Shown here piece after piece: positions 30,001-62,082 of a stretch of 64,000 nt of DNA. Both the position numbers and the translations under genes were made by a program. The notes below the pieces were generated by a model. That model was not told the DNA's origin, searched no databases, and was given only the letters and a program-made list of their open reading frames with translations. Every line of letters starts with the position of its first letter. The stretch's first letter is position 1. Source of the DNA: Candidatus Omnitrophota bacterium (GTDB taxonomy: Bacteria; Omnitrophota; Gorgyraeia; Gygaellales; Profunditerraquicolaceae); NCBI GenBank assembly GCA_022710715.1, contig JAKLGJ010000002.1, positions 501,453-565,452 on the forward strand, read 5' to 3'.

Positions 30001-31270
30001 GATCACCAGGATCGTCGCGTACGAGGAATCGACCAATGCGGGTATCCCGACCGCAGGTGCGACGGTGAGCTTCGGCATTCCCGGGAGCTTGAGGTACGAG
30101 AGTCTTTTCAAGATGTCGGGTTCCACTCCGCTGGGCACCAGCGCCGGCACCGGAGAAGCGATCCATCTGATCGATTCTAACTTTGCCCCGAATGAACTGA
30201 CCGCGCAGTATCCCGACCTGTTCGACAAAAGCGCCACCGGAACGTATTCGTTCAAAAAGTCGGTTGACGATAATCAGATTATCGCCAAAGACGATGCCGT
30301 CCTTACGGAGTTTTATAAGAGGGCGAACCGTTACAGCGGCAAAGGCGTATTGAACGCGGTTTCCAACGTGGAAAAGATACTGGCGGAGAAGTTTGTCGGC
30401 AAAAAGTTATCGGAGTTGGGCGGCATTGAGAATATAGATAAGGTTTTGCTGGAAGCGGAATTCGAATTAGGCGTGGCGCGCGGTTTGATCAGTCGCGATG
30501 CGCCGATGGATGAAAAGATCAAGTTCATGCAGCGCAAAGGTAATATCGGCATGAATGCGCTTCTTTCCACATCCCTGGCCTTGGGCCGCATGGTTACGGC
30601 AATGCAGGGTAAGGAATTGTGGCAGACTTTGCGCGAGACGATGGCGACGACCATCGCCCGCACTATCGCCGAAAGCGAAGGCGTCAGCGCGCAGGAGCTG
30701 GAGCAGAACTATACCTTCGAACAGCTGGTCGAAAAGTTGCAGAAGTTCGAACAGGCGCGCAAGGAGCGCAAAGACGAACGTCCGTTGTATGCGTATCTGG
30801 AAGCGGCGTTGCCGGTATACGGCGAGGCTGACGGCGGGTCGCAGGTGCAGGACGGCGGATTGAAGACCGATGCGCAGGAAGTCGTCGAGCAGCAGACCGT
30901 GGCGGTTGAGCAGCAGGCTGCTGCGGCGAATCAGGCTCCGGAAGAGCTCGGCGGCGTGGATCTGCGCGCTTTGCCGGTGTCGGTCAAGCCGGTCGATGCA
31001 TCGCGGGTCGTTCCGGTTAATTCCGCGCTGCTGAAAATGTCCCTCCAGGACCTGGATAAGACCTGGACGGATTTGCGCGGCAAAGTGGAAGGGCAAGCGG
31101 TCCCGTACCAGCAGCTCAAAGAATACGTGGCTGCCTGCAAGTCCCGCGCTGATGCCGCAAAGCAGCTGGCGCAGGTGCGCCGTTACATCGGCGAACTGCT
31201 CAAGCTCGAGGAAGAGAGGGCTATCGCATCCTCTTCCGAGATGCATGAGATTGTCGGTATTATCGGCTAA
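27026..31270 (+). CDS. giant secreted/membrane protein A: signal peptide + conserved N-domain + 4-TM region with HEMGH motif + circularly permuted enolase-like domain + Q/E/A-rich tail
   Basis: AAAGGAGAGG RBS; 1414 aa; enolase barrel motifs (AFDPAASE, IGDDVATTN, LLVKANQIGSL, VVSHRS, LVKYG) precede enolase N-domain motifs (ITRIVAYEESTNAGIPT.., PLGTSAGTGEAIHL, RYSGKGVLNAV). Confidence 0.85.
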   Translation: MKMMRRVMAVVVGFCLLLEQTGFAQVAPQFNVPAYLNGYVAADKFRPVQLRSISLGQDAQDLNLYLDAGDARNISSRQAKESARQLLEYFRVGLALPNQSFWVNLRPDAQDKILDMSLERTDMGKILLEADLQLKKDLAAFTSPDTREGKQYWNRLYARAEQIFGPDNITIPTITRPWIVPGEIILRQSQESAYIYKATLKVMLEQDWFAQPDAALGISAAVMADKRVQELNAYSSELIRTHILPKLTAEVNSSRKYAALRQVYYSLILAQWYKRQFQGKDNAYARRIDSRDLSGLESRHAWSKTTAFNAYKKSFSEGEYKKEEMVRSGKNVIVHRYFSGGVSVVNTMAAQNSVSNQVFTSNNAALTEPLIAYSAQTDEVTPAQQSEVAVKDTETQEEPAGRLEKGWVIANHILVSFHVAFIVSLLSLPVAEMFSKWDVLQYVFASAETPLSALLWYIGWHSGIALHEMGHYLKAVKTSALRAELLPAAEAKMRQGFLGRMKWYAEMFVKIPWGKFEGVKKVGRGIAANYYPDAPFNAAVAAEGPRFSGKVAKLTLPAGIGLLAAGLFAQTVPAFAGIGDALVFLGRMFFGIGAISFLDYKMADPGKLAEFDERERKAAEKAKAVTAETVQAEQISWKDQMGDVKKKMLRQRIQEAETRWGVSIRAPWGWRNSGMGGRHTEKEYPQSNISMQEAMFIPLSAKTYEDAQRMVVELQTRLHQIINKVEGARVEGIGLEGGLATYIEKDPSDLVPEQRLWRLMVQAIKESGFKPGEDVVLAFDPAASELEIAYREKYEQPDAVGMYLFWRDANQVVMSRDQLMDLYDWAIENNIPLISGEDLFAEDDYEGWKLAMAKYGDVMFIIGDDVATTNAHTVEFLADEKLINTLLVKANQIGSLAETLLAMLTGLGKGLEMVVSHRSKSPNDDMEAQVALSVNAVGLKAGGGANTERLVKYGAIIKMMKEAILDAAMKDSRGVTNKELEQQVTAVIDQLQITRIVAYEESTNAGIPTAGATVSFGIPGSLRYESLFKMSGSTPLGTSAGTGEAIHLIDSNFAPNELTAQYPDLFDKSATGTYSFKKSVDDNQIIAKDDAVLTEFYKRANRYSGKGVLNAVSNVEKILAEKFVGKKLSELGGIENIDKVLLEAEFELGVARGLISRDAPMDEKIKFMQRKGNIGMNALLSTSLALGRMVTAMQGKELWQTLRETMATTIARTIAESEGVSAQELEQNYTFEQLVEKLQKFEQARKERKDERPLYAYLEAALPVYGEADGGSQVQDGGLKTDAQEVVEQQTVAVEQQAAAANQAPEELGGVDLRALPVSVKPVDASRVVPVNSALLKMSLQDLDKTWTDLRGKVEGQAVPYQQLKEYVAACKSRADAAKQLAQVRRYIGELLKLEEERAIASSSEMHEIVGIIG

Positions 31271-31368
31271 ACGGCCGGTAGATCAATGATGTTCAAGGAA
31301 GCCACGGTTCTGGATTGAGCGATCAGTCGAGCACCGTGGCTTTCTGCTCTGTGGAGAGGCGTGTGATC

Positions 31369-34300
31369 ATGCATAGAGGCATCGGATCCATCCGAAAAAC
31401 AGTCTCCATTCTAACCAGCCTGGTTCTGCTGCTGCAGACGGCAGGCTTCGCTCAAGTTTTTTCTCCGTCCGCGGTCAATGCGGATGTTCCCGCATCACGC
31501 CTGTCCGGCTGCTGCCGGCCCATGCATCTGCGCTGGCTGGCAGTGGATCCGGATAACCGGTCATTCAACGTCATTCTGGACACCGGAGACGCAACCGGTA
31601 TTTCCCCCCGACGCCTGCGCGAAGAATCTCAAAAACTCATCGAATATTTCCTCATCGGTCTGGTCCTGCCCAACAGCTCGTTCTGGGTAAATCTACGCCC
31701 CGACGCGCCTTTGCGCGTTATTGATCCTTTGCTGGAGCGCACCGACGTCGGCAGGATACTGCTGGAAGCCGATGTGCGTTTGAAAAAAGATCTGGCCGCA
31801 TATACGTCTCCCGCCACCGCGCAAGGGCGGCGTTACTGGGATGCGTTGTATAAACGGGCTGCAGAGCTGTTTGGTCCGGCGCAGATAACCGTTTCCACCG
31901 CTTCCCGTCCCTGGATCGTGCCCGGCGAGATCATCATCGGCGAAGGCGAACAGGGAGCGTATGTGTATAAGGCGACTCTGGACGTGCGCTTGGAAGACGA
32001 TTGGATCGGCCGTTCGGATCCTGTGTTGAAACAGCTCAACGCGTACGGCGCGCAATTGCTCAAGCGGGAAATCCTGCCCGGGCTGATCAAAGAAGTGAAT
32101 ACCTCGGAGAAATACGCTGCTCTGCGCCAGGTGTACTATTCGCTGATCCTGGCGCAATGGTTCAAACTGCATCCGGCTCAGGCCGGCGCTTCCCTGTCCG
32201 CGATCGTCGACGCAGCAGATCCCGTCGGACTGGCTTCGAGCATTCCCTGGTCCAAGAATACATTTACTGCCGAATATCGCCGGTCCCTGCAGGCGGGCGA
32301 ATACAACCAGAAAGAATACGTGCCGACTTCCGCGGGCTTGAGTCTGCGTCAGTACGCCAGCGGAGGCGCGCTTTTCAACGGCAGCAGCCGGGTTCTTTCG
32401 GTGTCGCCGGGATTGGGCCGGGCAGTTCTGCATGCGCCGGCGCCGTACCGGCAGGCGCTCGAAGTTCCTTTTCCGCAGGCGGTGCGCGTTGTGCTTTCCC
32501 GTCGGTCAAACGTTGACACGCATGCGGATGAGCCGGATGGCGGTACCCAGGCGCAGGAAGAGATACGCATTATGGCATTGTACGGCGGTTTGCAGCGGTT
32601 GACGAATTTTGTGCTGAAAGAATCCCGCCCGTCGGCAGCGCGATTGCTGCCGGATATCGCCAGGTCGGGGCACGCGCAGATGGTCGCCGCGGTAGTGCCC
32701 GAACTGATGCGCGCCGCGGCTTCCAGTAACCGGCCCGATATCCGGGCGGCTGCCAATGAATGCCTTGCCGCGGTCCGGTCCCCGGCTCAGACGGCTGCAC
32801 TCGAGCCGGTTGCGCCGGAGTCGTCTCTGCAGCCGGCTGCCGTTTCCGCGGTAGACCGGGAAAACCTCGCCGGTTTTCTCCACGCGATGGGCGGCCGGGA
32901 TATCAACGCAGCCATTGCCGCATGTGCGGCCATGCGCGCATTGTTCAAAGAGAAGCCGGGTTTGTGGGCAGACCGGCAGGTCGTTGAAGCTGTCGGGCCT
33001 GTTCTGAAAAGCAGTTTTCCGAGAGCGCGATTGGCGCTGATGGAAGCCGTTGAACAAAGTATCAGCGCTCCGGTCAGCGATGAGCTTCTTTTCCTGGTTT
33101 TAAAAGGAATGAATGATCGCGACGACCAGGTGAGCGAAAGAGCGCTTTTCGCGTTCGCGCGCATACTCGCCGCGGAGCCGCGCCCGGGTCATACCGGTGA
33201 GGCGCTTGCCCGGATCATGGATGAGCCGGAATCTTTCGCTATTGCCGGGTTGGTATTCGACCTTATCGCCAGAAAGGGCGCCGGCGAGCTTGAACCGCTC
33301 TGGCAGTTGCACGCCGGAAACCGGGCGCACTTGCGCCGGGCGCTGGAGCAGAATCTCGCCGATGCCGCTTTTCCGGGATTGTATACGCTAAACGACGTTT
33401 CCTGGCGCGGGCTGGCCGAACAACTGATTGAATACAACCGTCTTACCGCCGATGCGGACGCGCCGCTGCGTTCGGTGATCGTCAAGATGCTCCTGGCCCG
33501 CGAAGGCGCGGTGTCTTTCGGCCGGATGAAATGGCTGGTGGCTGAATCGCTTTCGTATTTCCACGTCAATCTCGCGCATGCGCTGGAAAAAACGCGTTCG
33601 GTCGCCCTGCGCCGGCAGCTGATCAAGGCTTCCGGCGTGAGTACCGCGGACAGCATCGAAGTGTTGCGCACCCGGGCCATCCGGTTCGCGGCCATCGCGG
33701 ACAACGATACGAGTTTCGATTCTTCCAGAGGCGTGGCCGGACGTATTCGCAGCGATATCCATCTGCGTCTTTCTCCCCAGGACTTGCGCGCGGTCAGAGC
33801 CTACCGCACATTCCTCGACGGAGACGCTTCCGAACTGACCGCTCTGGGGTATACGATCAGTGAATCCGACCGCGTCCCGCCGGAACGCAAGGCGCGGGTG
33901 GCCGCGGCCGCCGAAGATCTGCTGGACGCGCTGGAGGAGATATTCGGCGAAGAGAGCGGGAAAGGGGTGAGGGCGTATTTCGCTCTGGCGAAAAAGATGT
34001 TCCGGGACCATCCGGTTCTCGCGAATGAGATCCAGGAAATTCTTGATTTTTCCGGAAAGAAAGATCTGGCGTATCTGGAGCGGATCAATGCGGCCAGGAG
34101 CCTTCTGGCGGAGGTCGGCCGAACCATGCGCTCGACGGAACTGATGATGAGTATCGGGCTGGATAACGCGCTGGAGAACCTGTATTACGGGGGCGTTGCC
34201 GCTTTCGAACCGTCGGTGGATTACGCCGATGATCTGCAGACGCTGAAGGTTGTGCGCAGCCTGATGGAAGCGGTGCGGTTGAACGGTTACTGTCGGGAAG

Positions 34301-36342
34301 AGATCGCGATGATTGTTTTGCAGGTCGAAGCGGTGCTGGCGAGAGGGATACGCAATCAGGAAGACCGGCTGGAGATCTATGCGCTGTACCGCCGGCTGGA
34401 GCGGATGATCAAAGGTATTTCCCAGGAGACGATCAACGATTATCAGGAGATCGCGCAGCGCCTGGGCGCTGCCGCGGGCAAAGCCGATGCTCCCTGGGTC
34501 GGCGAATTCTCCGCTCAACTGATGCGCCGGGACGTGGTGTACTGGCTGGCCAGCGTGACGGAGAAAGCGATGCAGTCGGCCATGTCTTCCGCGGGGATCA
34601 GCGGCTGGCAGGTGATCCAGGAAGGCGTCGCGCGGGGAAGGATCAAAGTGATCGTCGATAATGAGGATTTCGCCGGCCTCAAGGATGATGAAATAGCGGT
34701 CGCCGCGCAGCTTCCCGACGACAGCCGGTTTCTTATTCATGCCAGAGGGATCATTACCACCGGGGTGGAATGTTTGCTGTCTCATCCCGCAGTCCGGGCG
34801 CGGCAGCAGAAAACGGTTTTCGTCTCCGCTCCATCTCTGGATGAGGCAAAAAAATACGCCGGGCAATGGGTAGAGCTGTCAGCGCAGGGAGAGCAGGTGA
34901 TCATCCGGCCTCAAGCTGAAGCCGAGGCGCAGCGGGAAGCTTCGATCGTGCCGAAGAAAAAGCCGGCCGGGGCGATTGCACCGGTGGAGCCTGACCGCGC
35001 CTGGAGTGCGGCAGTGGTTCTCCCGTCGGATTATACGCCGCAGCGGGTAGGTAATAAAGCGTATACCTTGAGCCGGATACCGGATAATCTTATCGCCGGG
35101 CAGAGAACGGCCCGTCATTTCAGTTTGAGCTTCGCTTTTTTCGATGCGGTGTTGGCGCTTGAGATTAATCGCGCCCGCAAACAGGAGTTGCAGGTTTTGC
35201 AGCAACGGGTGATCCAGGCAGCCCGGGATCAGGATGTGCGTGAGGATTTACGGCGTATGCGGGCTTTGGTGGAAGAGCTCGAGCTGCCGCAGCAAACGCT
35301 GGGAGAAATCGTCGCCACCGCGACGGAGTTGTTTGGCCGGGAAACGCCGCTTTTCCTGCGCTCCAGCACCAATGCCGAAGACCTGGCGGATTATTCGGGC
35401 GCAGGGGTGTATGATTCTTTCGGCGCGGTAACGCTTTCTCCGCCGGACATCGCCCGCCATGTCAAAAAGGTATGGGCTTCAGTCTGGAATGAGAAAGCGT
35501 TTTTCGACCGCCAGGCGAATGCTATCGATCACGCCGCGGTGCGGCCGGCAGTCTTGATCCAGGAGATGCTGAATCCGGAGTATTCCTTTGTCATCCATAC
35601 CCGGTCGCCGGTCAACGGCAATGACGGGGCGGTGCTCATCGAAGCGGTGCAGGGATTCGGGGAAACGCTGGTCAGCGGCCTGGACGCTTACGCCGGGCAG
35701 GCGTATCGTTTCAGCGTGGATAAGTCTACCGGCGAGCTCAAGTTGATCTCGTTCGCGAATAAGAGCCGCAAGATCGTTGTGCGCGCCGGCCGTTTCAACG
35801 ATGCCGCCGCGGATTATCACGATGACTGGCTGGTGACGCCTGAAGGACGGCAACTTCTGCAGCGCATAGGCATGGCCGCGATCAAACTCGCGGACGCCGC
35901 AGGCGCCGCCCAGGATATCGAGGGCGTGATCGTCAATGACCGGGACGGGCGCACAGTCGGATTCGTCCAGACGCGCGCGCAGGTTATGCTGAATGCGGAC
36001 GGCGGCAATCTTCTGGGCGGAGTGGATCTGCGCCTGTTATCCGCCGACAATGCCGCCGCGGCCGGCGCGCAGATCCCGCGGGCGCGCGGGATATTCCTGG
36101 AGCGGTCCGCCGCCGAATGCGACGGGATCTGTCGCGCTCTGCTTGCCGGATTGGAACGTGACCCGTCGTCGCTGGAAGGATTGCGGGAATACGTGGTGGA
36201 GATGGGCGTCCGGGCGGACGCAGAGCAGCGGTTGAAAGACGTGTCCATCTGGTTGATGAACCGGCTGCGCATGGAAGAGGCGGCTGTGATGAAAACTCCC
36301 GCGCCGCTGCGGGAAGCGCTTGTCTGCCTCGGCGCGAGGTAA
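31369..36342 (+). CDS. giant secreted protein B (paralog of A): signal peptide + conserved N-domain + HEAT/ARM-like helical repeats + C-terminal PEP-utilizing-enzyme ATP-grasp (PPDK_N-like) domain
   Basis: GGAGAGG RBS then ATG 31369 (ORF opens 31315); N-domain clearly homologous to A (e.g. SFWVNLRPDA, RPWIVPGEII, KYAALRQVYYSLILAQW identical); C-terminus has LRSSTNAEDLADYSGAG and VLIQEMLNPEYSFVIHTRSPVNGNDGAVLIEAVQGFGETLVSG. Confidence 0.85.
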   Translation: MHRGIGSIRKTVSILTSLVLLLQTAGFAQVFSPSAVNADVPASRLSGCCRPMHLRWLAVDPDNRSFNVILDTGDATGISPRRLREESQKLIEYFLIGLVLPNSSFWVNLRPDAPLRVIDPLLERTDVGRILLEADVRLKKDLAAYTSPATAQGRRYWDALYKRAAELFGPAQITVSTASRPWIVPGEIIIGEGEQGAYVYKATLDVRLEDDWIGRSDPVLKQLNAYGAQLLKREILPGLIKEVNTSEKYAALRQVYYSLILAQWFKLHPAQAGASLSAIVDAADPVGLASSIPWSKNTFTAEYRRSLQAGEYNQKEYVPTSAGLSLRQYASGGALFNGSSRVLSVSPGLGRAVLHAPAPYRQALEVPFPQAVRVVLSRRSNVDTHADEPDGGTQAQEEIRIMALYGGLQRLTNFVLKESRPSAARLLPDIARSGHAQMVAAVVPELMRAAASSNRPDIRAAANECLAAVRSPAQTAALEPVAPESSLQPAAVSAVDRENLAGFLHAMGGRDINAAIAACAAMRALFKEKPGLWADRQVVEAVGPVLKSSFPRARLALMEAVEQSISAPVSDELLFLVLKGMNDRDDQVSERALFAFARILAAEPRPGHTGEALARIMDEPESFAIAGLVFDLIARKGAGELEPLWQLHAGNRAHLRRALEQNLADAAFPGLYTLNDVSWRGLAEQLIEYNRLTADADAPLRSVIVKMLLAREGAVSFGRMKWLVAESLSYFHVNLAHALEKTRSVALRRQLIKASGVSTADSIEVLRTRAIRFAAIADNDTSFDSSRGVAGRIRSDIHLRLSPQDLRAVRAYRTFLDGDASELTALGYTISESDRVPPERKARVAAAAEDLLDALEEIFGEESGKGVRAYFALAKKMFRDHPVLANEIQEILDFSGKKDLAYLERINAARSLLAEVGRTMRSTELMMSIGLDNALENLYYGGVAAFEPSVDYADDLQTLKVVRSLMEAVRLNGYCREEIAMIVLQVEAVLARGIRNQEDRLEIYALYRRLERMIKGISQETINDYQEIAQRLGAAAGKADAPWVGEFSAQLMRRDVVYWLASVTEKAMQSAMSSAGISGWQVIQEGVARGRIKVIVDNEDFAGLKDDEIAVAAQLPDDSRFLIHARGIITTGVECLLSHPAVRARQQKTVFVSAPSLDEAKKYAGQWVELSAQGEQVIIRPQAEAEAQREASIVPKKKPAGAIAPVEPDRAWSAAVVLPSDYTPQRVGNKAYTLSRIPDNLIAGQRTARHFSLSFAFFDAVLALEINRARKQELQVLQQRVIQAARDQDVREDLRRMRALVEELELPQQTLGEIVATATELFGRETPLFLRSSTNAEDLADYSGAGVYDSFGAVTLSPPDIARHVKKVWASVWNEKAFFDRQANAIDHAAVRPAVLIQEMLNPEYSFVIHTRSPVNGNDGAVLIEAVQGFGETLVSGLDAYAGQAYRFSVDKSTGELKLISFANKSRKIVVRAGRFNDAAADYHDDWLVTPEGRQLLQRIGMAAIKLADAAGAAQDIEGVIVNDRDGRTVGFVQTRAQVMLNADGGNLLGGVDLRLLSADNAAAAGAQIPRARGIFLERSAAECDGICRALLAGLERDPSSLEGLREYVVEMGVRADAEQRLKDVSIWLMNRLRMEEAAVMKTPAPLREALVCLGAR

Positions 36343-44163: not shown

Positions 44164-45117
44164 ATGCGTATTCTGGTTACCGGCGCCACCGGTTTCATCG
44201 GCAGCCGCCTGGTCGATGCGTTGCTGGCTCAAGGCCATGCGGTTACCGCTCTGGTGCGCGAGACCAGCGACACGACGTTTCTTCGAGCCGGAAACGTCAA
44301 CCTGCTCACGGGAGACCTTCGCGATGCGCGCAGCATAGAAGCGTTGCCGGCGCAGCCCTGGGACGCGGTGTTCCATTGCGCGGCGATGGTCGCGGACAGC
44401 GATCCCCGGGCCCTTTTTAAATCCAATGTGATCGGCACCGGGAATATCTGCGAGCTCGCTCAACGCTCGCACGCCGGCAGGTTCATTTATCTAAGTTCCG
44501 TTGCCGTGATCAGCGGGAATCCCCGGTCGCCTCTTACCGATGATCTTCCTTACCGCGCTACCAATCTCTATGGCCATTCCAAGATCGAAGCGGAAAAAAT
44601 AGTTCTCTCTTTCAGGCAACAGGGATTGCCGGTAGCAATCCTGCGCCCGAGCATGGTGTATGGAGAAGGCGAGCCGCATATGCAGCAGGTTTTGCTGCGG
44701 CTGCTGCAATGGCGGCTGCTTGCGCTTCCGGCGCGCGGCCGTCCGAAAATGCATCTGGCGTATGTGGGCACGGTCGTGCGCGCGCTGCTTTTGGCATTGC
44801 AGAGCGACGTTTTGCTCGAAGGGACTTTCCTGGTGGCGGATGAAGACGTCTTGAGCATGCGGGAGATATTCACCGCTTTCAGCGCAGGGCTGGATGCGCC
44901 TGCGCCGTGGCTCCTGCCCTGCGGCATGACGCCGCTGTTGCGCCGGCTTCCCTGGCTGGGCAGGCGGCTGGATGCTCTGCTCAAGGATCGGGTCTACGAT
45001 ATCAGCCGGCTGAAAGCCGCGGGTTTCCCGGCAGGAGAGTATTCGACCAGAGCGTTACTTGTGCGCACGGCAAGGGAGTGGAAGAGCGGACAGTCGGCAG
45101 GTCAGATTTTCCTGTAG
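44164..45117 (+). CDS. NAD-dependent epimerase/dehydratase (SDR) family protein
   Basis: ILVTGATGFIGSRL Rossmann motif; YxxxK. Confidence 0.8.
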   Translation: MRILVTGATGFIGSRLVDALLAQGHAVTALVRETSDTTFLRAGNVNLLTGDLRDARSIEALPAQPWDAVFHCAAMVADSDPRALFKSNVIGTGNICELAQRSHAGRFIYLSSVAVISGNPRSPLTDDLPYRATNLYGHSKIEAEKIVLSFRQQGLPVAILRPSMVYGEGEPHMQQVLLRLLQWRLLALPARGRPKMHLAYVGTVVRALLLALQSDVLLEGTFLVADEDVLSMREIFTAFSAGLDAPAPWLLPCGMTPLLRRLPWLGRRLDALLKDRVYDISRLKAAGFPAGEYSTRALLVRTAREWKSGQSAGQIFL

Positions 45118-46187
45118 ATGCGGGCGTTGGAATCGGTATCCTCGAAATAATTCTTCATCTCATACACCATATTCTCGGATTTCCCCAGTACGATATATCC
45201 GTTCAGACGCAGCGATTCATGAAATTGCTTGAGGATCTGATGCTGGAGTTCTTTGTTGAAATAGATGAAGACATTCCGGCACAGCAGTATATCGATGTCC
45301 TTGAGGTATTCCTGCGAAGTCAGATCGAGGTAATTGAACGCAACCATGCTCTTTACGGATTCCAGAACGCGGTAATTGTCCCCGCTGACCGCGAAATATT
45401 TCGATACCAGTTCGGGCTCGGTGTTGATCAGCCGGTCCTTGGGGTACTCGGCTTTTTGCGCGGTATTCAGGCAGGCTTTATCCACATCGGTAGCGAAGAG
45501 TTCCACTTTAAAATGCAGGAGGGTGGTTTTAAGCACTTCCCGCAACAGTATCGCCATGCTGTACATTTCTTCTCCGCAGGCGCAGCCGGCCGACCAGATG
45601 CGCAGCGACGTGTCGTTGTTGCGCATTTTTTCCCTGGCCAGCGTTTCGATCAGATATCTGATGGTGATCCAGACCGGCTTGTCGCGAAAGAACTCCGAGA
45701 CATTGATACAGAGGGTTTCGAAAAGTTTCTCGTATTCCTGCGGCTGCCGGGCGAGCAGGTTCATGTATTCGGTATAGGAAGACAGGTTGTTGAGTTTGAT
45801 GCGCAGCGCGAAACGCCGTTTGAGCAGGTCGATGTGATAATTGCGGAAATCCAGCCCGCGGTCCTGCAGGATGCGTTCGAGCAGCCGCCGGAAAGCTTTC
45901 TTCCGGTCTTCGAGAGGCGGATGTCCGGGGTTGGCGTCGATGGTGTCGATGGCTTTGAGCACGACGTGGTTGATCTCCCGCTGGTGTTCCTCTCTCGCTT
46001 GTTGCACCGCGGCGTCAAGTTCTTCCCGGGTTACGCTGACCGTCTTCGGGGCGACCTGGGCAAGCACCTCTTTGAGCATGTCTTTTCTGCATTTGGCGCA
46101 GGTGCAAATGTCGTAACGCATGTTCAGGCTGCGCTCGAGGGTTTCCAGGGCGATGATTTCAATGAGATTGTAGTTTTGAACGCTCAT
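45102..46187 (-). CDS. ComFB-like N-domain fused to CheR-type SAM methyltransferase
   Basis: N-term YDICTCAKCRKDML..PKTV (ComFB 4-Cys pattern); CheR motifs (INVSEFFRD, IWSAGCACGEE, LLCRNVFIYF). Confidence 0.7.
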   Translation of the reverse strand: MSVQNYNLIEIIALETLERSLNMRYDICTCAKCRKDMLKEVLAQVAPKTVSVTREELDAAVQQAREEHQREINHVVLKAIDTIDANPGHPPLEDRKKAFRRLLERILQDRGLDFRNYHIDLLKRRFALRIKLNNLSSYTEYMNLLARQPQEYEKLFETLCINVSEFFRDKPVWITIRYLIETLAREKMRNNDTSLRIWSAGCACGEEMYSMAILLREVLKTTLLHFKVELFATDVDKACLNTAQKAEYPKDRLINTEPELVSKYFAVSGDNYRVLESVKSMVAFNYLDLTSQEYLKDIDILLCRNVFIYFNKELQHQILKQFHESLRLNGYIVLGKSENMVYEMKNYFEDTDSNARIYRKI

Positions 46188-46212: not shown

Positions 46213-47307
46213 TTAAGGGGAGGGGATTTTTTTGTAGAGGCGCGAATCGAAGTCGATCTCCTGAAAAATGCTTTTGACGTCACGGATCATGCTTTCCGAT
46301 TTTCCCATCACCAGATAGCCTTCCGGCTTGAGGGATTGATAGAATTTCATGAGGATCTGTTCCTGGAGGTTGCGGTCGAAGTAGATAAAGACATTGCGGC
46401 AGAAAACAATATCGGCGTTTTCGATCAGTTCGGTCGAGGTTAAATCGAGATAGGCGACGGTTATCAGGTTGTGTATCTCCGCGCTGACCGTCCAGCTTCC
46501 GTCTTTGCCGGCGAAGTATTTCTCCAGCAATTTTTTGTCCACGTTCTTGAGGCTCTCTTTGCCGTAAACGCCTTTCCCCGCGGCATCCATAACCTTCTTG
46601 TCCACGTCAGTGGCATGGATCTGTATCTGGAAATCGGACATGCCCGGTCCGAGCAGCTCGCGCAGGATGATGGCGATGGTGTGCGCTTCTTCGCCGCTGG
46701 CGCAGCCGGCGGACCAGATCTTCAGGCTATGGGAGTTTTCTTTTTTTTTAGCCCGGATCATTTCCTCCAGAACCCGCTTGACCGCTACCCAGACTTCCGG
46801 ATCCCGGAAGAATTCAGAAACGTTGATGCAGAGAACTTCGAAGAGTTTGTCGTATTCTTCGGGATGGTTGATCAGATACCGCAGATAGTCGGCGTAGGTG
46901 GCGAGCTTGAGGGTGCGTATGCGCACGGCTACTCTGCGCCGCAGCAAATCCTGATGATAGTGCCGGAAATCAAGACTGCGGTCCTCGCGTATTTTGTCCA
47001 GCAGCAACGCAAAAGTTTTGTTTTTGTCTTCTTTGATCTGATGCCGCGGATTGTTGCCGACCAGCTCGATCGCTTGAAGAATGGCTCTGGCTATCTGGGC
47101 CTGATGTTCCACCCGGGTTTGCTGAATAATTGTGTGCATCGCGCCTTCCTGCGTGGTCACGTATTTTGCCGGCACATGGGAGAGGATATAGGCGAGCATG
47201 TCATTTTTACAGACTGCACAGGTGCAAATATCATAGCGCAGAGTAAGCGCGCTTTGCAGGTAATCCTGGGCAATGTCTTCAATGATATTTCTAAGTTTTT
47301 CAGACAT
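46213..47307 (-). CDS. ComFB-like N-domain fused to CheR-type methyltransferase, tandem paralog
   Basis: YDICTCAVCKNDML..PAKYV; INVSEFFRD, IWSAGCASGEE, VFCRNVFIYF. Confidence 0.7.
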   Translation of the reverse strand: MSEKLRNIIEDIAQDYLQSALTLRYDICTCAVCKNDMLAYILSHVPAKYVTTQEGAMHTIIQQTRVEHQAQIARAILQAIELVGNNPRHQIKEDKNKTFALLLDKIREDRSLDFRHYHQDLLRRRVAVRIRTLKLATYADYLRYLINHPEEYDKLFEVLCINVSEFFRDPEVWVAVKRVLEEMIRAKKKENSHSLKIWSAGCASGEEAHTIAIILRELLGPGMSDFQIQIHATDVDKKVMDAAGKGVYGKESLKNVDKKLLEKYFAGKDGSWTVSAEIHNLITVAYLDLTSTELIENADIVFCRNVFIYFDRNLQEQILMKFYQSLKPEGYLVMGKSESMIRDVKSIFQEIDFDSRLYKKIPSP

Positions 47308-47464: not shown

Positions 47465-47492
47465 TTGCATAATCTATCAAATATGATAAAAT
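47465..47492 (+). promoter_or_regulatory. promoter-like TTGCAT-16-TAAAAT in AT-rich divergent intergenic region
   Basis: 220-nt region of about 30% GC between divergent cheR-like and pilin genes. Confidence 0.3.
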
Positions 47493-47529
47493 ATGACAAA
47501 TATTATTAAGGTATATCAGGAGCTTCCAG

Positions 47530-48183
47530 GTGAGAGTTTATAGAGTCAATGAAGTCGCCGAGAAACTGGGTATTTCCAAGCAGACCCTGCTGCGTTACGA
47601 GAAGAAGGGCGTGTTTCCTAAATCGCAGCGTAATCGTATTAATAGCTGGCGTGAATATACGGAGGATGATGTTCGTAAACTCCAGTCGATTATCGGTCGG
47701 GCATTTACGCTGATCGAGTTGATCATGGTGATGGTGATCATCGCTGTTCTGGCGGTATTCACCATCCCGACTTTCGACGTTTTTTCCAGCATGAAACTCA
47801 ATGCGGCAGCGCACAGGACCATGTCCGATATCCGCTATGTCCAGGGATTGGCGACGACGACGCACAGCCGTTACCGGATCACGTTCAATGCTGCAGCCAA
47901 TACGTATGAGGTGCGTAACAGTTCGACTAACGCGTTGATCCGGCATCCTTTTACCCGTCAGAACTTCACCGTCAGCCTGAACGCCGATCCGCAATTTACC
48001 GGCGTGGATATCGGTAGCGTCAACTTCGACGGAGGACAGGTGCTGCAGTTTAACTGGAAAGGCGAGCCTGAAACCGGCGCAGGCGCGTTGCTTGCCGCGC
48101 AGGGAAGCGTGAGGCTGGCTTATCAGGAAGAGAATATGAGTGTAACCGTCAGCCCGGGTACGGGATTTGTCAAGGTGCAGTGA
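47530..48183 (+). CDS. MerR-type HTH domain fused in frame to a GspH/FimT-like type IV pseudopilin
   Basis: AGGAG RBS, GTG start; aa 1-55 HTH (AEKLGISKQTLLRYEKKGVFP); aa 56-75 prepilin signature GRAFTLIELIMVMVIIAVLA; C-terminal GspH/FimT-like domain. Confidence 0.7.
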   Translation: MRVYRVNEVAEKLGISKQTLLRYEKKGVFPKSQRNRINSWREYTEDDVRKLQSIIGRAFTLIELIMVMVIIAVLAVFTIPTFDVFSSMKLNAAAHRTMSDIRYVQGLATTTHSRYRITFNAAANTYEVRNSSTNALIRHPFTRQNFTVSLNADPQFTGVDIGSVNFDGGQVLQFNWKGEPETGAGALLAAQGSVRLAYQEENMSVTVSPGTGFVKVQ

Positions 48184-48184
48184 A

Positions 48185-48661
48185 ATGCGCAAGAGCGGGT
48201 TTACCTTAATCGAACTGGTGGTGATTATCGTGGTGGTAGCTATCGCCATCCCGGCATTGTTGAATACCTGGGCGGGCATTTCCTGGCGTTCCATGAATTC
48301 GGAATTTATTGCCGATGCCGATATATACCTGCGGGAGTTGATGGAAGAGATCAAGGTCAAACGTTTCGACGAAGTCACGTCCCGGCCATGGACTGCGTCG
48401 AGCCTTTTCGCCTCCGGGCGCAGCGATGAAACCGAAGAGATCAATAACCGGACAAAGTTTGACGATATCGACGATTACAACGGATACGTCGATTCCACGG
48501 GCGGTTTTAACCGCAGCGTCGGCGTCAGCTATGTCAATCTGACCGGTTCAAACTGGCAGGATGTGGCCGGTCCGACGGATTTTAAGCGCGTCCGGGTATC
48601 TGTTGACCGCGCGCGAAATGCGATCAGCGTTTCCACGGCTACTATTATAAGCGGGTATTAG
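48185..48661 (+). CDS. type IV pseudopilin (GspI/PilV-like)
   Basis: canonical class III leader MRKSG|FTLIEL. Confidence 0.75.
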   Translation: MRKSGFTLIELVVIIVVVAIAIPALLNTWAGISWRSMNSEFIADADIYLRELMEEIKVKRFDEVTSRPWTASSLFASGRSDETEEINNRTKFDDIDDYNGYVDSTGGFNRSVGVSYVNLTGSNWQDVAGPTDFKRVRVSVDRARNAISVSTATIISGY

Positions 48662-48662
48662 C

Positions 48663-49163
48663 ATGCAGAAGCATTCAACGCGCCGCAGAGGCGTTACGTT
48701 AATCGAGCTGGTAGTCGTTATCGTGCTGGTGGGGATTCTGACCGGCCTGGGCAGCCTGTATTTAAAAGAGGTGATCGACCTGTGGAATTTTGTTTCTTTC
48801 CGCAGCGAAGCGGTGAGCACCACGCGGGTTGCGGTGACGCGGATGCTGCGTCAAATGCGCCAGGTGCGTAACGACACGTCCGTTACGTTCGCCAACGCCA
48901 CCCGGTTTCAGTTCACGGACAGGAGCGGCGCCGTGGTGAATTTCAATCTTTCCGGGACAACCTTGTTATGCAATAACAATATCCTGGCCGAAGGGGTCAG
49001 GAATCTTTCCTTTACGTACATGGATAACAGCGGTACATTGTTGCTCAATCCGGCAGTCAGTCCGCTGGCAACGAATATTCGGCTCATTCGTATCGGGCTT
49101 ACGGTGCAGGCCGGCACGCAAAGCAAAACGATCAGCGTGCAGGTTGCTCCGCGAAATCTGTGA
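48663..49163 (+). CDS. type IV pseudopilin (GspJ/PilW-like)
   Basis: MQKHSTRRRG|VTLIEL. Confidence 0.7.
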   Translation: MQKHSTRRRGVTLIELVVVIVLVGILTGLGSLYLKEVIDLWNFVSFRSEAVSTTRVAVTRMLRQMRQVRNDTSVTFANATRFQFTDRSGAVVNFNLSGTTLLCNNNILAEGVRNLSFTYMDNSGTLLLNPAVSPLATNIRLIRIGLTVQAGTQSKTISVQVAPRNL

Positions 49164-49176
49164 GGCAGGAGGTGGC

Positions 49177-50814
49177 GTGCGCATAAACCGGTGGAAAGAA
49201 ACATTGCGCAGTGAGCGCGGCGTTAGCCTGATCGTGGTTATTTTCGTGATCATGCTCCTGGGGGTTATGGGGTGGGCTTTGATGTCCATGCAGAGCGTGG
49301 ATTTCGAGATGAGCTGGCGTAATCTCGATTCCGAGCGGGCGCTGGATGTGGCGGAATCCGGATTGCAGGAAGCGCTTAACCGCATCTCCACCGGTTCCGC
49401 TGAATTCAATAACGATACCAAAGTGCTCAATCGCACCCTGGAGAGCGGCCAGTATGTCGTCACCCGTACTACCGTCAATTCCAACATCAGCGTGCTTTCC
49501 ACCGGTTATGTGCCGGCGCAGGCGAATTACCGTGCGATGCGTCAGCTGGGCATGTTGATTACCAGCGCCAGACTGGATAAAGTCGTTCAGGCGCATAATC
49601 GTTTCAATTGGACCGACATTTCCGGTTCCTCGAGTTTCAACGGCACCATCCAGGCGGCCTGGTATAACGGTGACGACGTGCTTCCGGATAATCAACAATC
49701 CTCGGATATCACCCCCATTCCCCGCACCGGCAGTTCGCCGGCGCCGGTAATCGGGGCTACTCCGTATCCGCGCATCGATATGGCCGGGTATCAGCAGGAA
49801 GCCGCGAGCAGCGGCACGGTCTGGACTCCGCCGCGCACCGGGGTGATCAGCTCTAAAACGGATCTGGGGACAGGGAAAACCCAGCTTGTGTTCACTCCGG
49901 CGGATATGTTTAAAAGCCCGCACGCTCAATTTGAAGGCCAGGCGCTGCGCAATATCTCCCGCGGCCATTGGGATGCTTCATATGCCGCTTTGGCCCCGGT
50001 GACCAGCAATGTCGGGAATCAGAGGGCGGACGTGGATACCATCAGGGTAAACGGTTGGCAGGTCGGCGACAGGGTCATGCTTATTCCGGCGATAGCTCCG
50101 GCGGGAGGCAGCGGTCATCAGACCTTGACCCATAATAATACGCAGAAAACCATCGCTTTTCACCTGGATTGCGAATATGATAATCTGGCGGTAGGGGACG
50201 CGGTGCGTAACCTGGACCGGGCAAATGACAGCTGGTCGTATGATCAATGGGGGACAGTGACTTTCGTCGAAGTCAAGAACAGGCTGACCAACATCACGGT
50301 GAGAGTGGATAGTTCGGTCAATCTTACCCTCGCCGCAAACCAGTGGCAGGTCGGAGATCTGATCTGCGCGGCGAAGTTGTATGATGATACGTGGACCGTC
50401 GATCAGAATATTGTCTACGTGCAGGCGGATACGGTATTCAATGTGGCGAGCTTCATCAATGCTTTTTCCGGCACCAGTATTATCAGCGAGGGTGATATCG
50501 GTATTAAAGGTACGGGGATGATGCTTTTTTCCCAACGGCCGGATCCGTACCCTGCGCTGGCCACCAAGAACGGCAACATTTCTTCCCCGGATCTGCCTAA
50601 CTGGATTTTGCGCTTATTGGGGCTGGGCAGGGTGTTCGATACCCTGATCTATTCGGAAACCGGGGATATTTTCTTTACTTTTCTCTACGGCACTGCGGTA
50701 GTCGGCAACAATGTCACCCTGGTCGATAAATCCGTGGTGAGATACAACGCGGTTATCGCGCAAGCGCCGCATTTTATCATGGATATGATAGCGCAGGACT
50801 GGCAGGATGAATAA
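49177..50814 (+). CDS. GspK/PilX-like large minor pseudopilin
   Basis: GGCAGGAGGTGG RBS, GTG start; ERGVSLIVVIFVIMLLGVMG GspK-like N-terminus; 545 aa. Confidence 0.6.
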   Translation: MRINRWKETLRSERGVSLIVVIFVIMLLGVMGWALMSMQSVDFEMSWRNLDSERALDVAESGLQEALNRISTGSAEFNNDTKVLNRTLESGQYVVTRTTVNSNISVLSTGYVPAQANYRAMRQLGMLITSARLDKVVQAHNRFNWTDISGSSSFNGTIQAAWYNGDDVLPDNQQSSDITPIPRTGSSPAPVIGATPYPRIDMAGYQQEAASSGTVWTPPRTGVISSKTDLGTGKTQLVFTPADMFKSPHAQFEGQALRNISRGHWDASYAALAPVTSNVGNQRADVDTIRVNGWQVGDRVMLIPAIAPAGGSGHQTLTHNNTQKTIAFHLDCEYDNLAVGDAVRNLDRANDSWSYDQWGTVTFVEVKNRLTNITVRVDSSVNLTLAANQWQVGDLICAAKLYDDTWTVDQNIVYVQADTVFNVASFINAFSGTSIISEGDIGIKGTGMMLFSQRPDPYPALATKNGNISSPDLPNWILRLLGLGRVFDTLIYSETGDIFFTFLYGTAVVGNNVTLVDKSVVRYNAVIAQAPHFIMDMIAQDWQDE

Positions 50815-60296: not shown

Positions 60297-61142
60297 ATGG
60301 ACGATATAGAGAAGCTCCTGGTCGAACGGGGATTGATCAACCCGGAAACGCTTGATCTGGCGCGACTGGAAGCCGCGAAGAACGGATATTCTGTATGGCT
60401 GTCTTTAGTCAAACTGGGGTATCTTACGGAAACGCAATTAATGGTTTTCTTCGCCCAGGAGAGCGGCATCGCCTATATCAACCTTTCCGATTACCGGATT
60501 GCGCCGGAGGTTCTTCATCTCCTGGACGAGCATTTTTGCCGTCAGAATACGGTCATTCCTGTATGCAAGATCAATGACCTGTTGTATCTTGCCTGCAGCA
60601 ATCCGCTGGATCCCGCGCTTGTTGACGCTGCCGGTAAACATTGCGGATTGAGCGTGGAACCGCTTTTTGCGACCACCGCCGCGATCACTGCGGCGCTTGA
60701 TTATTACTGGAGACTCAACGAGAGGAATTTTTCCGCCGGACAGTTCATTTCCCGGAAGAATCCCCTGAAAGGGGTGGGGTTCTGGAGGGAGTCCGAACGG
60801 TTATTCCTTTCTTTGCCGGTTACCGTGGCGGTCCGCGACCAGGGTATCGCTCTGGCTCCGGCGCAGCAACTTAAGGCGCAAGCCCAGGATATTTCGCAGA
60901 ACGCTAAGGCAATCGGCATTGCCTGTCCGGTATTCTTGCCCAGGGGGGTAAGTCTTTTCATGGAATTTGACGGTTTGAAAAGACCCGGGGCCAGGCAAGA
61001 GGAATTTTGCGCAACCGGAGAAATAATTCGTTGTTTTATGCTCAAAGAACGGGATTATTTTCTGGGTGTGACCCTGGGCGAGCTTGATCCCGTTCTAAGG
61101 CAACGTCTTTTGGAAAAAGCCTTTACGCGAAATACGGCTTGA
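60297..61142 (+). CDS. stand-alone MshEN/T2SSE_N-like domain protein with unknown C-terminal domain
   Basis: N-terminal LVERGLINPETLDLARLEA..LVKLGYLTETQL resembles GspE N-domain. Confidence 0.5.
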   Translation: MDDIEKLLVERGLINPETLDLARLEAAKNGYSVWLSLVKLGYLTETQLMVFFAQESGIAYINLSDYRIAPEVLHLLDEHFCRQNTVIPVCKINDLLYLACSNPLDPALVDAAGKHCGLSVEPLFATTAAITAALDYYWRLNERNFSAGQFISRKNPLKGVGFWRESERLFLSLPVTVAVRDQGIALAPAQQLKAQAQDISQNAKAIGIACPVFLPRGVSLFMEFDGLKRPGARQEEFCATGEIIRCFMLKERDYFLGVTLGELDPVLRQRLLEKAFTRNTA

Positions 61143-61167
61143 CAATTACTATCAGGTATCATAGAAT
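61139..61167 (+). promoter_or_regulatory. sigma70-type promoter TTGACA-17-TAGAAT
   Basis: ttgaca 61139-61144 overlaps upstream stop; tagaat 61162-61167; AT-rich. Confidence 0.5.
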
Positions 61168-61236
61168 ATCATCAAATAGTATTAAGCGTATTTAGGATAA
61201 CTTTTACCAACCCAACTCAAGGCGGTGTGGAAAGAC

Positions 61237-61428
61237 ATGAGCCTCAAAATTTTTACAGCTCAAGAAGTTGCGCAGATGTTGGGGATCTCGAAGCAGACGC
61301 TTTTTCGGTATGAAAAGAAAGGCATTTTCCCTAAGGCTAAGCGCCATCTGATTAACCAGTGGCGCCAATATACCGAAGAAGATATTAAGAAGCTGAAGAG
61401 TATCCTGGGGATAGGTGTTATTCGTTAG
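61237..61428 (+). CDS. stand-alone MerR-type HTH protein, paralog of the HTH fused to the pseudopilin at 47530
   Basis: MSLKIFTAQEVAQMLGISKQTLFRYEKKGIFPKAKRHLINQWRQYTEEDIKKLKSILG, about 65% identical to aa 1-55 of the 47530 protein; ORF may start at GTG 61225. Confidence 0.65.
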   Translation: MSLKIFTAQEVAQMLGISKQTLFRYEKKGIFPKAKRHLINQWRQYTEEDIKKLKSILGIGVIR

Positions 61429-61452: not shown

Positions 61453-62082
61453 ATGAAGATGAAGAAAGACGTAGATATCAAACAAATGCTTATCATTATC
61501 GGCGGTATTGCGCTCACCATCGCCTGTATAGCTTATGCGGCCTGGCCTTTTATACGGGACCGCATGGAGAGCAGTAAAATGGCTCAAGCTAACCGGGAGT
61601 GGGAGGCAAAAGAGAAGGCCGCAGGCAGGTCCGGACTGGGTGGGTTGCAGGTAGTCATTCCCGGTTCGTCCGCAGTTGTTCCTGCACCGGTAGATCCTGC
61701 CGCCCCAACGCCGGCAGAGCCGCCGGGCGTTGAGCCGTCCGCCGCGTCACAATCTCCGGCGCAACCTGTGCAGGAAGCGAAACCCGTTCCGGAAACCGCT
61801 CCGCTGGTGCCGGAAGCACCCAATCCTTTTTTGACTAAAGAAGAGCGGGAGATCATCAAAAAGCGGGGTATACTGCCGGTACTGGATTATTTGACGGTAA
61901 ACGCGATTATTGTCTCGCCGTCCGGAAGTCAGGCGGTTATTGACGGCCGGATCCTGCGCGAGGGAGATATTATAGACGGCAAGCAGATAGTCCGGATCGA
62001 ACCGGAGCAGGTCATCTGCAAGGATTCGTTCAGGGAATATATGATCAGGATCGGGAACGTAGTGAAAGAACCGGAAGAATGA
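61453..62082 (+). CDS. PilP/GspC-like protein (TM anchor, Pro-rich linker, C-terminal beta domain)
   Basis: AIIVSPSGSQAVIDGRILREGDIIDGKQIVRIEPEQVIC C-terminal domain. Confidence 0.45.
   Translation: MKMKKDVDIKQMLIIIGGIALTIACIAYAAWPFIRDRMESSKMAQANREWEAKEKAAGRSGLGGLQVVIPGSSAVVPAPVDPAAPTPAEPPGVEPSAASQSPAQPVQEAKPVPETAPLVPEAPNPFLTKEEREIIKKRGILPVLDYLTVNAIIVSPSGSQAVIDGRILREGDIIDGKQIVRIEPEQVICKDSFREYMIRIGNVVKEPEE

Follow-up and report, generated by a model that had tools for sequence, protein, structure and literature searches.

The leader of a type IV pilin is generally viewed as a short peptide to be discarded, and prepilin peptidase as an enzyme that serves maturation only. On insertion of a prepilin its leader stays on the cytoplasmic side, where prepilin peptidase cuts at the membrane face, and the leaders of type IV filament proteins end in Gly or Ala (PMC10191384). 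The known members of the FimU/GspH group of minor pilins (EpsH, XcpU) have short leaders of this sort. A second relevant system is BldC of Streptomyces, the founding mini-MerR protein, which forms head-to-tail multimers on direct repeats by means of its winged helix-turn-helix (wHTH) alone (PMC5859096). The window analysed here, a stretch of 64,000 nucleotides from a Candidatus Omnitrophota bacterium (assembly GCA_022710715.1, contig JAKLGJ010000002.1, positions 501,453 to 565,452), contains a gene at 47530-48183 that joins the two, with a BldC-like mini-MerR helix-turn-helix (HTH) domain standing where the leader of a FimU/GspH-type minor pilin would be. The parts are of known kinds and the combination is new; the architecture is well established, and a mechanism in which the domain is released to regulate transcription is plausible. 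Taken jointly with that release and regulation, the description of the gene as a two-in-one precursor, with residues 1-58 a wHTH in the leader's place and residues 59-217 a minor pilin, has in our judgement about an even chance of being correct. The features of the gene are as follows.

47530 to 48183, plus strand: HTH-prepilin fusion gene, GTG start, 217 amino acids (aa) plus stop, from the listing of open reading frames (ORFs), profile hits and homologues
47518 to 47522, plus strand: Shine-Dalgarno sequence AGGAG, 7 nt before the GTG start, seen in the sequence and kept in the upstream alignment of fused loci
47530 to 47703, plus strand: leader, residues 1-58, a mini-MerR (BldC-like) winged HTH ending ...IIGRA, from Pfam, AlphaFold2 (AF2) and Foldseek
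47701 to 47706, plus strand: predicted prepilin-peptidase cleavage site, Ala58 / Phe59, from motif conservation
47704 to 47784, plus strand: alpha1N hydrophobic pilin segment with the invariant Glu63 (+5; codon 47716-47718), from TIGR02532 and N_methyl matches
47785 to 48180, plus strand: FimU/GspH-type minor-pilin globular head, from the top Foldseek matches and a predicted local distance difference test score (pLDDT) of 90-95

A sequence-only reading of the window had described an in-frame fusion of a MerR-type HTH to a pilin in this ORF, which is borne out by the ORF itself, by Pfam and NCBIfam and by the homologues. In Pfam, MerR_1 (PF13411) covers residues 4-54 with 40.7 bits (E 2.6e-10; cut-off 21.6 bits), and the match ends at profile position 49 of 69, where the pilin comes next. 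The NCBIfam model IV_pilin_GFxxxE (TIGR02532) passes its cut-off on residues 57-78 (26.1 against 16.3 bits), and N_methyl lies marginally below its own on residues 57-77 (21.0 against 21.2 bits). Over residues 57-147 the ComGD (41 against 70 bits) and GspH (TIGR01708, 29 against 80 bits) models score below cut-off, as does an XpsH-type minor-pilin model within the same residues, and on these scores the pilin part is related to the GspH/ComGD equivalogs without belonging to them. The junction reads ...KLQSIIGR-A / FTLIELIMVMVIIAVLA, in which Glu63 is at +5, and the alpha1N segment of the window gene, FTLIELIMVMVIIAVLAVFTIP, has the hydrophobic run usual in pilins, about 20-25 residues long and carrying Glu at +5. 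The leader departs from the usual short, hydrophilic and unstructured form (typically 5-30 aa), being 58 aa long and folding as a wHTH in the AF2 model. In-frame ATG, GTG or TTG codons are found only at codon 1, at codon 28 (GTG, 47611, within the HTH) and from codon 64 onward, and the in-frame codon scan of the window gene found none between codons 29 and 63. With starts at codons 1, 28 and 64 or later only, the window gene makes the pilin only as a fusion, and the earlier statement that no start separates the HTH from the TLIE motif holds for it. A start at GTG28 would give a 30-residue leader, and it is not a conserved start, because Ile occupies this position in 25 of the 31 aligned fused homologues from which this and the motif counts below were taken.

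A search of 5.8 billion proteins (JGI, ENA, NCBI and Logan assemblies) returned 53 relatives, 50 of them full length with the HTH and pilin in a single frame at 41-97% identity. In the source databases some of them are labelled 'MerR family regulator' and the others 'prepilin-type N-terminal cleavage/methylation domain protein'; the organisms, where named, are Omnitrophota, from metagenome bins. With each GTDB species represented by one genome, a scan located the fusion in 11 species, most of them labelled Omnitrophota, with a few fusion-bearing bins automatically labelled as Planctomycetes or Deltaproteobacteria. The possibility raised from the sequence that a sequencing or assembly error, an indel, had joined two ORFs is accordingly rejected, since a single open frame is found in more than 50 homologues; as 50 full-length sequences obtained independently and the representatives of 11 GTDB species agree in this, the likelihood of such an artefact is negligible, and coincidence is likewise excluded. 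The fusion is conserved and, as judged from the alignment, under selection. Within the homologue alignment the mean pairwise identity is highest in the HTH (0.67), followed by alpha1N (0.61) and the head (0.45), and the recognition-helix residues (LGISKQTL.RYEK) are at least 90% conserved in the fused family and common to the free-standing paralogues described below. This degree of conservation argues against the HTH being a decayed or repurposed extension that does not bind DNA, for example a leader that times or delays processing, with the pilin as the sole functional product; the relative P0062 does have a visibly degenerate HTH, and we regard this explanation of the family as very improbable.

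The cleavage motif is intact in the fused proteins. Position -1 is Gly in 28/31 and Ala in 3/31, position -2 is R or K in 30/31, position +1 is Phe in 26/31 and position +5 is Glu in all 31. R57-A58 of the window protein has the Gly/Ala leader end following basic residues that the rule for type IV filaments prescribes. The junction GRAFTLIE, which had been called non-canonical, is instead the Ala(-1) variant of the [R/K]-G / F-T-L-I-E motif, because Gly stands at -1 in 28 of the homologues and Ala is an accepted residue. In two fused homologues, P0036 and P0047, the junction is doubled (alignment columns 60-80) and reads ...ILRKGFTPLEK-(about 12 aa)-SSLTGFTILEM, with two serial prepilin-like cleavage motifs, and the stretch after the first of these is non-hydrophobic.

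An AF2 model computed on the homologue alignment has a pLDDT of 87. The HTH is modelled as a strand (residues 3-5), two helices (6-13 and 17-25) and a beta wing (33-44), followed by a single long helix (45-111) that crosses the junction into pilin alpha1, and then by the beta head (pLDDT 90-95). A long N-terminal helix carrying a beta-sheet head is the lollipop fold of pilins. Foldseek comparison of the pilin part with the PDB placed FimU of P. aeruginosa (4ipu) and EpsH of V. cholerae (2qv8) on top (probability 1.0, TM-score TMt 0.62-0.73), and that of the HTH returned BldC (6ama/6amk) and RacA (5i44) with TMt 0.70-0.73 and a root-mean-square deviation (rmsd) of about 2 A; against several MerR N-domains the rmsd was 1.3-1.6 A. 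Such close agreement (about 2 A) with BldC, RacA and the N-domains of MerR proteins, with the pLDDT of 87, supports the earlier suggestion that the leader is in effect a DNA-binding domain. The assignment of the remainder to a GspH/FimT-like pseudopilin stands as regards the FimU/EpsH fold and the position in the operon, but not as membership of the GspH or ComGD profiles, whose scores are below cut-off. The wHTH together with helix 45-111 also superposes on HiNmlR (5d90), a MerR N-domain with its coiled-coil helix, but loosely, with a low TM and an rmsd of about 18 A over about 124 aligned columns. In the model the uncleaved precursor thus loosely mimics a full MerR monomer, with pilin alpha1 as the 'dimerisation helix'.

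The leader domain has a large family of free-standing relatives. In the GTDB-species genome scan, 54 loci (L012-L065) match residues 1-57 only and encode free proteins of about 60 aa with the consensus M..KYYSAQEVAE.LGISKQTLLRYEKKGIFPKPKRN.VNGWREYT..D..KLKKILGR followed by the stop, and all 106 database matches to the HTH alone are proteins of 47-85 aa. The stop falls 0-1 residue past the position homologous to R57 in 30/53 of the free paralogues. A cut after residue 58 would leave one residue past R57, so that the released leader would end where these free paralogues do. The free genes end at about 60 aa, with neither a C-terminal coiled-coil dimerisation helix nor an effector domain. The operons that they lead encode a small lipoprotein-like protein and a large secreted protein (250-700 aa, sometimes over 1000 aa), PilM, or PilZ-PilB, and two tandem free copies are found in L018, L027, L034 and L036. 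Such a paralogue is also encoded in the window.

61225 to 61428, plus strand: stand-alone mini-MerR paralogue, 61-67 aa depending on the start (GTG 61225 or TTG 61243), ending ...KSILGIGVIR, 61% identical to the leader (tblastn E 4.5e-24)

This paralogue directly follows PilB, PilC and MshEN and is the first gene of the next operon, an arrangement also found in L012, L048 and L050, and a free paralogue is also among the returned loci in 8 of the 11 fusion genomes. The gene after it, 61453-62082, encodes a membrane protein with a T2SSB/PilP-like C-terminus. Taken together, the sequences point to a large family of BldC-like mini-regulators heading envelope and pilus operons in Omnitrophota, of which no description was found.

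The fusion itself seems to have arisen on one occasion. The eight fused HTHs that entered a neighbour-joining tree of HTH segments (those of the window, L001, L002 and L007-L011; L003-L006 dropped from the extraction) fall in one clade, rough as the tree is with such short sequences. An exhaustive search of 1.84 billion representatives with the pilin part returned mostly ordinary short-leader pilins of 155-190 aa (about 28-47% identity), and one of the relatives, P0054 at locus L066, lies in the same CheR / four-pilin order with an ordinary short leader and no HTH sequence anywhere near the operon. The condition set earlier against the fusion, that homologues always have a separate short-leader pilin, is therefore true only of these distant relatives and L066, which have no HTH, and false of all the close ones (above 41% identity), which are fused. 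From the syntenic but HTH-less L066 and the single clade of fused HTHs it follows that the HTH leader is a derived trait of one Omnitrophota lineage, and that the fusion probably arose once. A 1.2-kb JGI contig encodes one further protein, P0189, in which an excisionase-type HTH_17 is fused to the same type of pilin (…KFRRDKG / LTLIEV), apparently independently. No other protein with the P0189 architecture was found in the 5.8-billion set, and its nearest HTH relatives are spirochaete HTH_17-PTS-EIIA proteins. A general HTH-pilin architecture was considered and rejected, P0189 being a singleton and the matches to the HTH alone all being small free proteins, and other long N-terminal extensions among the pilin relatives look like over-extended start calls.

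The same evidence bears on a neutral origin, in which an operon-heading HTH gene lost its stop codon, a 'polycistron turned polyprotein', and the peptidase, which removes whatever lies before the Gly or Ala at -1, separates the products, which then behave just like unfused proteins with no added coupling between them. The free HTH gene usually overlaps or abuts the next gene, and such genes are therefore translationally coupled and one mutation away from fusion; the single clade fits a single event, and the operon at L066 works without an HTH. That locus, however, has no HTH gene before the pilin, so that a stop loss between existing neighbours is undocumented, and the fusion persists down to 41% protein identity with the junction motif intact. 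The cleavage step is common to this account and to the best explanation, and the two differ only in whether the coupling matters. A neutral fusion is an unlikely alternative, though the foremost of those considered.

The region upstream of the gene links the fused and free forms. The upstream features of both window genes are listed below.

47465 to 47470, plus strand: -35-like hexamer TTGCAT, weak, aligned with the invariant CTTG and CTTGACA of the fused loci
47484 to 47492, plus strand: putative extended -10, TGATAAAAT, 16 nt past the -35, its TA.AAT invariant or nearly so in 12 fused loci
47481 to 47520, plus strand: four tandem 10-bp direct repeats, ATATGATAAA / ATATGACAAA / TATTATTAAG / GTATATCAGG, from the -10 to the Shine-Dalgarno sequence, a candidate mini-MerR operator
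61135 to 61191, plus strand: putative near-consensus promoter and repeat array of the free paralogue (61147 to 61191 in a narrower delimitation), CTTGACA-17-TAGAAT, with units TACTA/TATCA/TATCA/TAGTA, the clearest 10-bp TATCA array of the window

The 100 nt upstream of 12 fused genes have a mean column identity of 72%, while the proteins are only 41-55% identical, and the blocks that are invariant or nearly so are CTTG (-35), TA.AAT (-10) and CAAATA.T.TTAA..TATATCAGG(AG). A consensus promoter scan did not call the plus-strand promoter, the -35 fitting 3/6 positions, and for this reason the assignment rests on the cross-species alignment. Among 65 upstream regions, fused and free, pairs of TAT[CT]A occur exactly 10, 20 and 30 bp apart 48, 26 and 11 times, respectively, against about 0.4 per distance in shuffles, and 31/65 of the regions contain such a pair, compared with 1.4% of AT-rich windows taken as background in these loci. 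A search of the 64-kb window for TATYA-N5-TATYA-N5-TATYA, allowing at most one mismatch, matched only at 61147-61181, before the free HTH gene (2 overlapping matches, 0 expected). The spacer is 16-17 bp and the direct repeats lie over and downstream of the -10, unlike the palindromic operator within the 19-20-bp spacer of MerR promoters. No Rfam match was obtained for the conserved 5' untranslated region (UTR) at E<=1. The tandem 10-bp repeats, which follow the promoter in fused and free genes alike, are on this pattern a likely common operator. Direct repeats in tandem, spaced by one helical turn and lying beside the gene of a MerR-like wHTH-only protein, correspond to the layout reported for BldC (PMC5859096).

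What the locus itself displays is the architecture, its conservation, the predicted fold, the conserved motif, the paralogues and the cis repeats; that the precursor is cleaved, that the HTH binds the repeats and in which direction it regulates are inferred. The alpha1N segment would insert in the inner membrane with its N-terminus inside, and the HTH would for that reason stay cytoplasmic. Prepilin peptidase would then cut after Ala58 to give two products, (i) the mature minor pilin, which together with the three subunits encoded downstream would prime assembly of the pilus, and (ii) a liberated HTH of 58 residues, as long as its free-standing paralogues. Whether liberated or still tethered, the HTH would bind the tandem 10-bp repeats that overlap its own promoter's -10 and 5' UTR, and probably also the repeats of the sister promoter at 61.15 kb. 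With one regulator made per processed pilin, expression of the operon would be tied to the flux of processed pilin, with a built-in feedback. Release of the regulator is circumstantially supported by the same-length free paralogues and the common candidate operator, and a peptidase-released HTH regulator coupling pilin maturation to operon control is the explanation we prefer, although we judge it equally likely to prove right or wrong.

The domain order and motif place a cytoplasmic DNA-binding domain, a membrane anchor and a protease site at the membrane face in one chain, in a topology that would follow from the positive-inside rule and prepilin biology (PMC10191384). Membrane insertion tolerates folded cytoplasmic domains on pilin N-termini, an example being the T18/T25-pilin fusions of the bacterial two-hybrid system BACTH (PMC5979040). 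The same topology would suit a membrane-tethered regulator in the manner of ToxR or CadC, in which the HTH beside the membrane acts while anchored and cleavage, if any, switches it off as the fragment is degraded. Unprocessed minor pilins signal in P. aeruginosa (PMC5979040), and the loose superposition of the HTH and long helix on HiNmlR is in keeping with such a regulator; the free paralogues, however, show the domain to be functional in soluble form, at a length of about 60 aa, and the cleavage motif and Glu+5 are kept as in pilins that assemble. A tethered regulator is improbable on balance, and release by the peptidase is retained as the better account.

Several observations weigh against release and regulation. 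The AF2 helix runs uninterrupted from residue 45 over the junction to residue 111 and, if this modelled continuity is real, could impede access of the peptidase. Residue 51 is Met in 23 of the 31 fused proteins and mostly Leu in the free paralogues, the codon in the window (47680-47682) being CTC; in those 23 homologues, although not in the window, Met51 could serve as an internal start giving a normal 7-residue leader, and the fusion product might therefore be a minor species in those organisms. The loci compared upstream are related by descent, which inflates the counts of repeat spacing, and another factor could bind the repeats. A search with an approximate query for prepilin peptidase (PilD) found none in the window and none within 8 kb on either side of the fused genes. 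With the same query, PilD homologues were detected 1.3-2.2 kb upstream of seven free mini-MerR genes (L018, L019, L023, L024, L027, L030 and L035), on the same strand, and their presence near free-HTH loci of Omnitrophota was counted in favour of release.

The fusion is the first gene of a four-gene minor-pilin operon, in agreement with the initial description of it as the first gene of a pilus cluster, and the operon that it heads is conserved. The neighbouring features are the following.

48185 to 48661, plus strand: second minor pilin (MRKSG / FTLIEL), ordinary short leader, from the ORF and profile matches
48663 to 49163, plus strand: third minor pilin (MQKHSTRRRG / VTLIEL), ordinary short leader, from the ORF and profile matches
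49144 to 50814, plus strand: large PilX/GspK-like fourth subunit with no Pfam match, start uncertain (RGVSLIVVIF, lacking Glu5), gene order kept in L001-L011
51170, 52965 and 54078, downstream of the fusion: PilM-PilN, PilO and the secretin (PilQ), respectively
57176, 59027 and 60297: PilB, PilC and an MshEN/PilZ-like protein, respectively, named by sequence features only
45102 to 46187 and 46213 to 47307, minus strand: two tandem CheR-type methyltransferase paralogues, divergent from the fusion gene
47413 to 47385, minus strand: promoter-like site TTGACA-17-TATATT ahead of the divergent CheR-type pair

The order of two CheR-like genes (divergent), fusion, pilin, pilin, PilX-like, PilMN, PilO, PilQ ... 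PilB, PilC and free HTH is kept in 11/11 fused loci. In most fused loci, and likewise in L066 with its lack of an HTH, the CheR-type pair adjoins the minor-pilin operon; the CheR orthologue of L066 carries ComFB, CheR_N and CheR domains. In the preferred explanation the cluster is taken to be a type IVa pilus cluster. Elsewhere in the window, two adjacent and very large ORFs of 1414 and 1675 aa (27026-31270 and 31315-36342, both plus strand) begin with N-terminal signal-like sequences.

A complete DNA-binding leader, same-length free paralogues and a common candidate operator suggest a stoichiometric link between processing and expression. If the proposal is true, the gene would represent a new class of prepilin-peptidase substrate and product. 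In its fullest form, prepilin peptidase would act as a regulatory protease, each maturation cut of the FimU-like pilin freeing a BldC-like factor that feeds back via 10-bp repeat operators, which would make this the first functional type IV pilin leader and a bacterial counterpart of presenilin-type release; this is put forward tentatively, being somewhat more probably wrong than right. Both enzymes, prepilin peptidase and presenilin, belong to the GxGD class of aspartyl proteases. Literature searches, with many subscription journals outside their scope, found no published HTH-pilin fusion, functional pilin leader or factor released by prepilin peptidase. The type IV pili of Omnitrophota have been proposed to mediate host attachment (PMC10066038), and the locus offers an entry point to their regulation. 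Although the organisms are uncultured, the proposal is testable with synthetic genes in E. coli.

In comparison with known systems, the pilin part has in common with FimU/GspH the predicted fold, the position as first gene of a four-gene minor-pilin operon and the class III signal-peptide motif with Glu+5, and differs in its 58-residue folded wHTH in place of a short leader and in GspH/ComGD scores far below cut-off. Leaders beyond the classical 5-7 residues are known from type IVb prepilins and from PilE of S. sanguinis, and are still removed by the peptidase (PMC10191384); in the Geobacter pilin 7tgg the alignment begins at chain residue 21 with GFTLIE a few residues on, implying a leader of roughly 29 residues. 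These long leaders lack structure, and no function of their own is known for them, whereas the leader here is about twice as long and an independent domain with free paralogues. The modular type IV pilins (PilB-vWA, PilC-lectin; PMC8179133) likewise have a functional module grafted onto a pilin, but the modules described are C-terminal and displayed on the filament, and the module here is N-terminal and cytoplasmic, with removal proposed before assembly. That survey sought the N-terminal IPR012902 motif plus extra domains (PMC8179133), and the text files of its supplement contain no MerR or HTH term.

The HTH resembles BldC (PMC5859096) in being a wHTH-only protein module of about 60-68 aa, lacking a coiled coil and effector domain, and in having tandem direct repeats rather than a palindrome in the associated DNA, to which binding is here proposed. 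It differs in sequence (~29% identity), in the repeats (TAT[CT]A every 10 bp as against AATT-N4-C) and in that one paralogue is joined to a pilin. With classical MerR proteins only the N-terminal winged HTH is common, the coiled-coil helix, the effector domain and the palindromic operator in a 19-20-bp spacer being absent here. The release of a membrane-held, DNA-directed factor by a membrane-embedded protease is paralleled in pro-sigmaK/SpoIVFB, SREBP/S2P and Notch/presenilin, with the difference that cleavage here would, as far as known, be a constitutive maturation step and not gated by a signal. The closest functional parallel is inventory control in P. aeruginosa, by PilA-PilS-PilR and by the minor pilins with FimS-AlgR (PMC5979040), in which operon expression depends on how much pilin is present in the inner membrane. 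That control uses a separate two-component sensor, whereas the proposed signal here is a regulator domain within the pilin precursor itself, which, if true, would constitute a compact, one-protein alternative to both PilS-PilR and FimS-AlgR.

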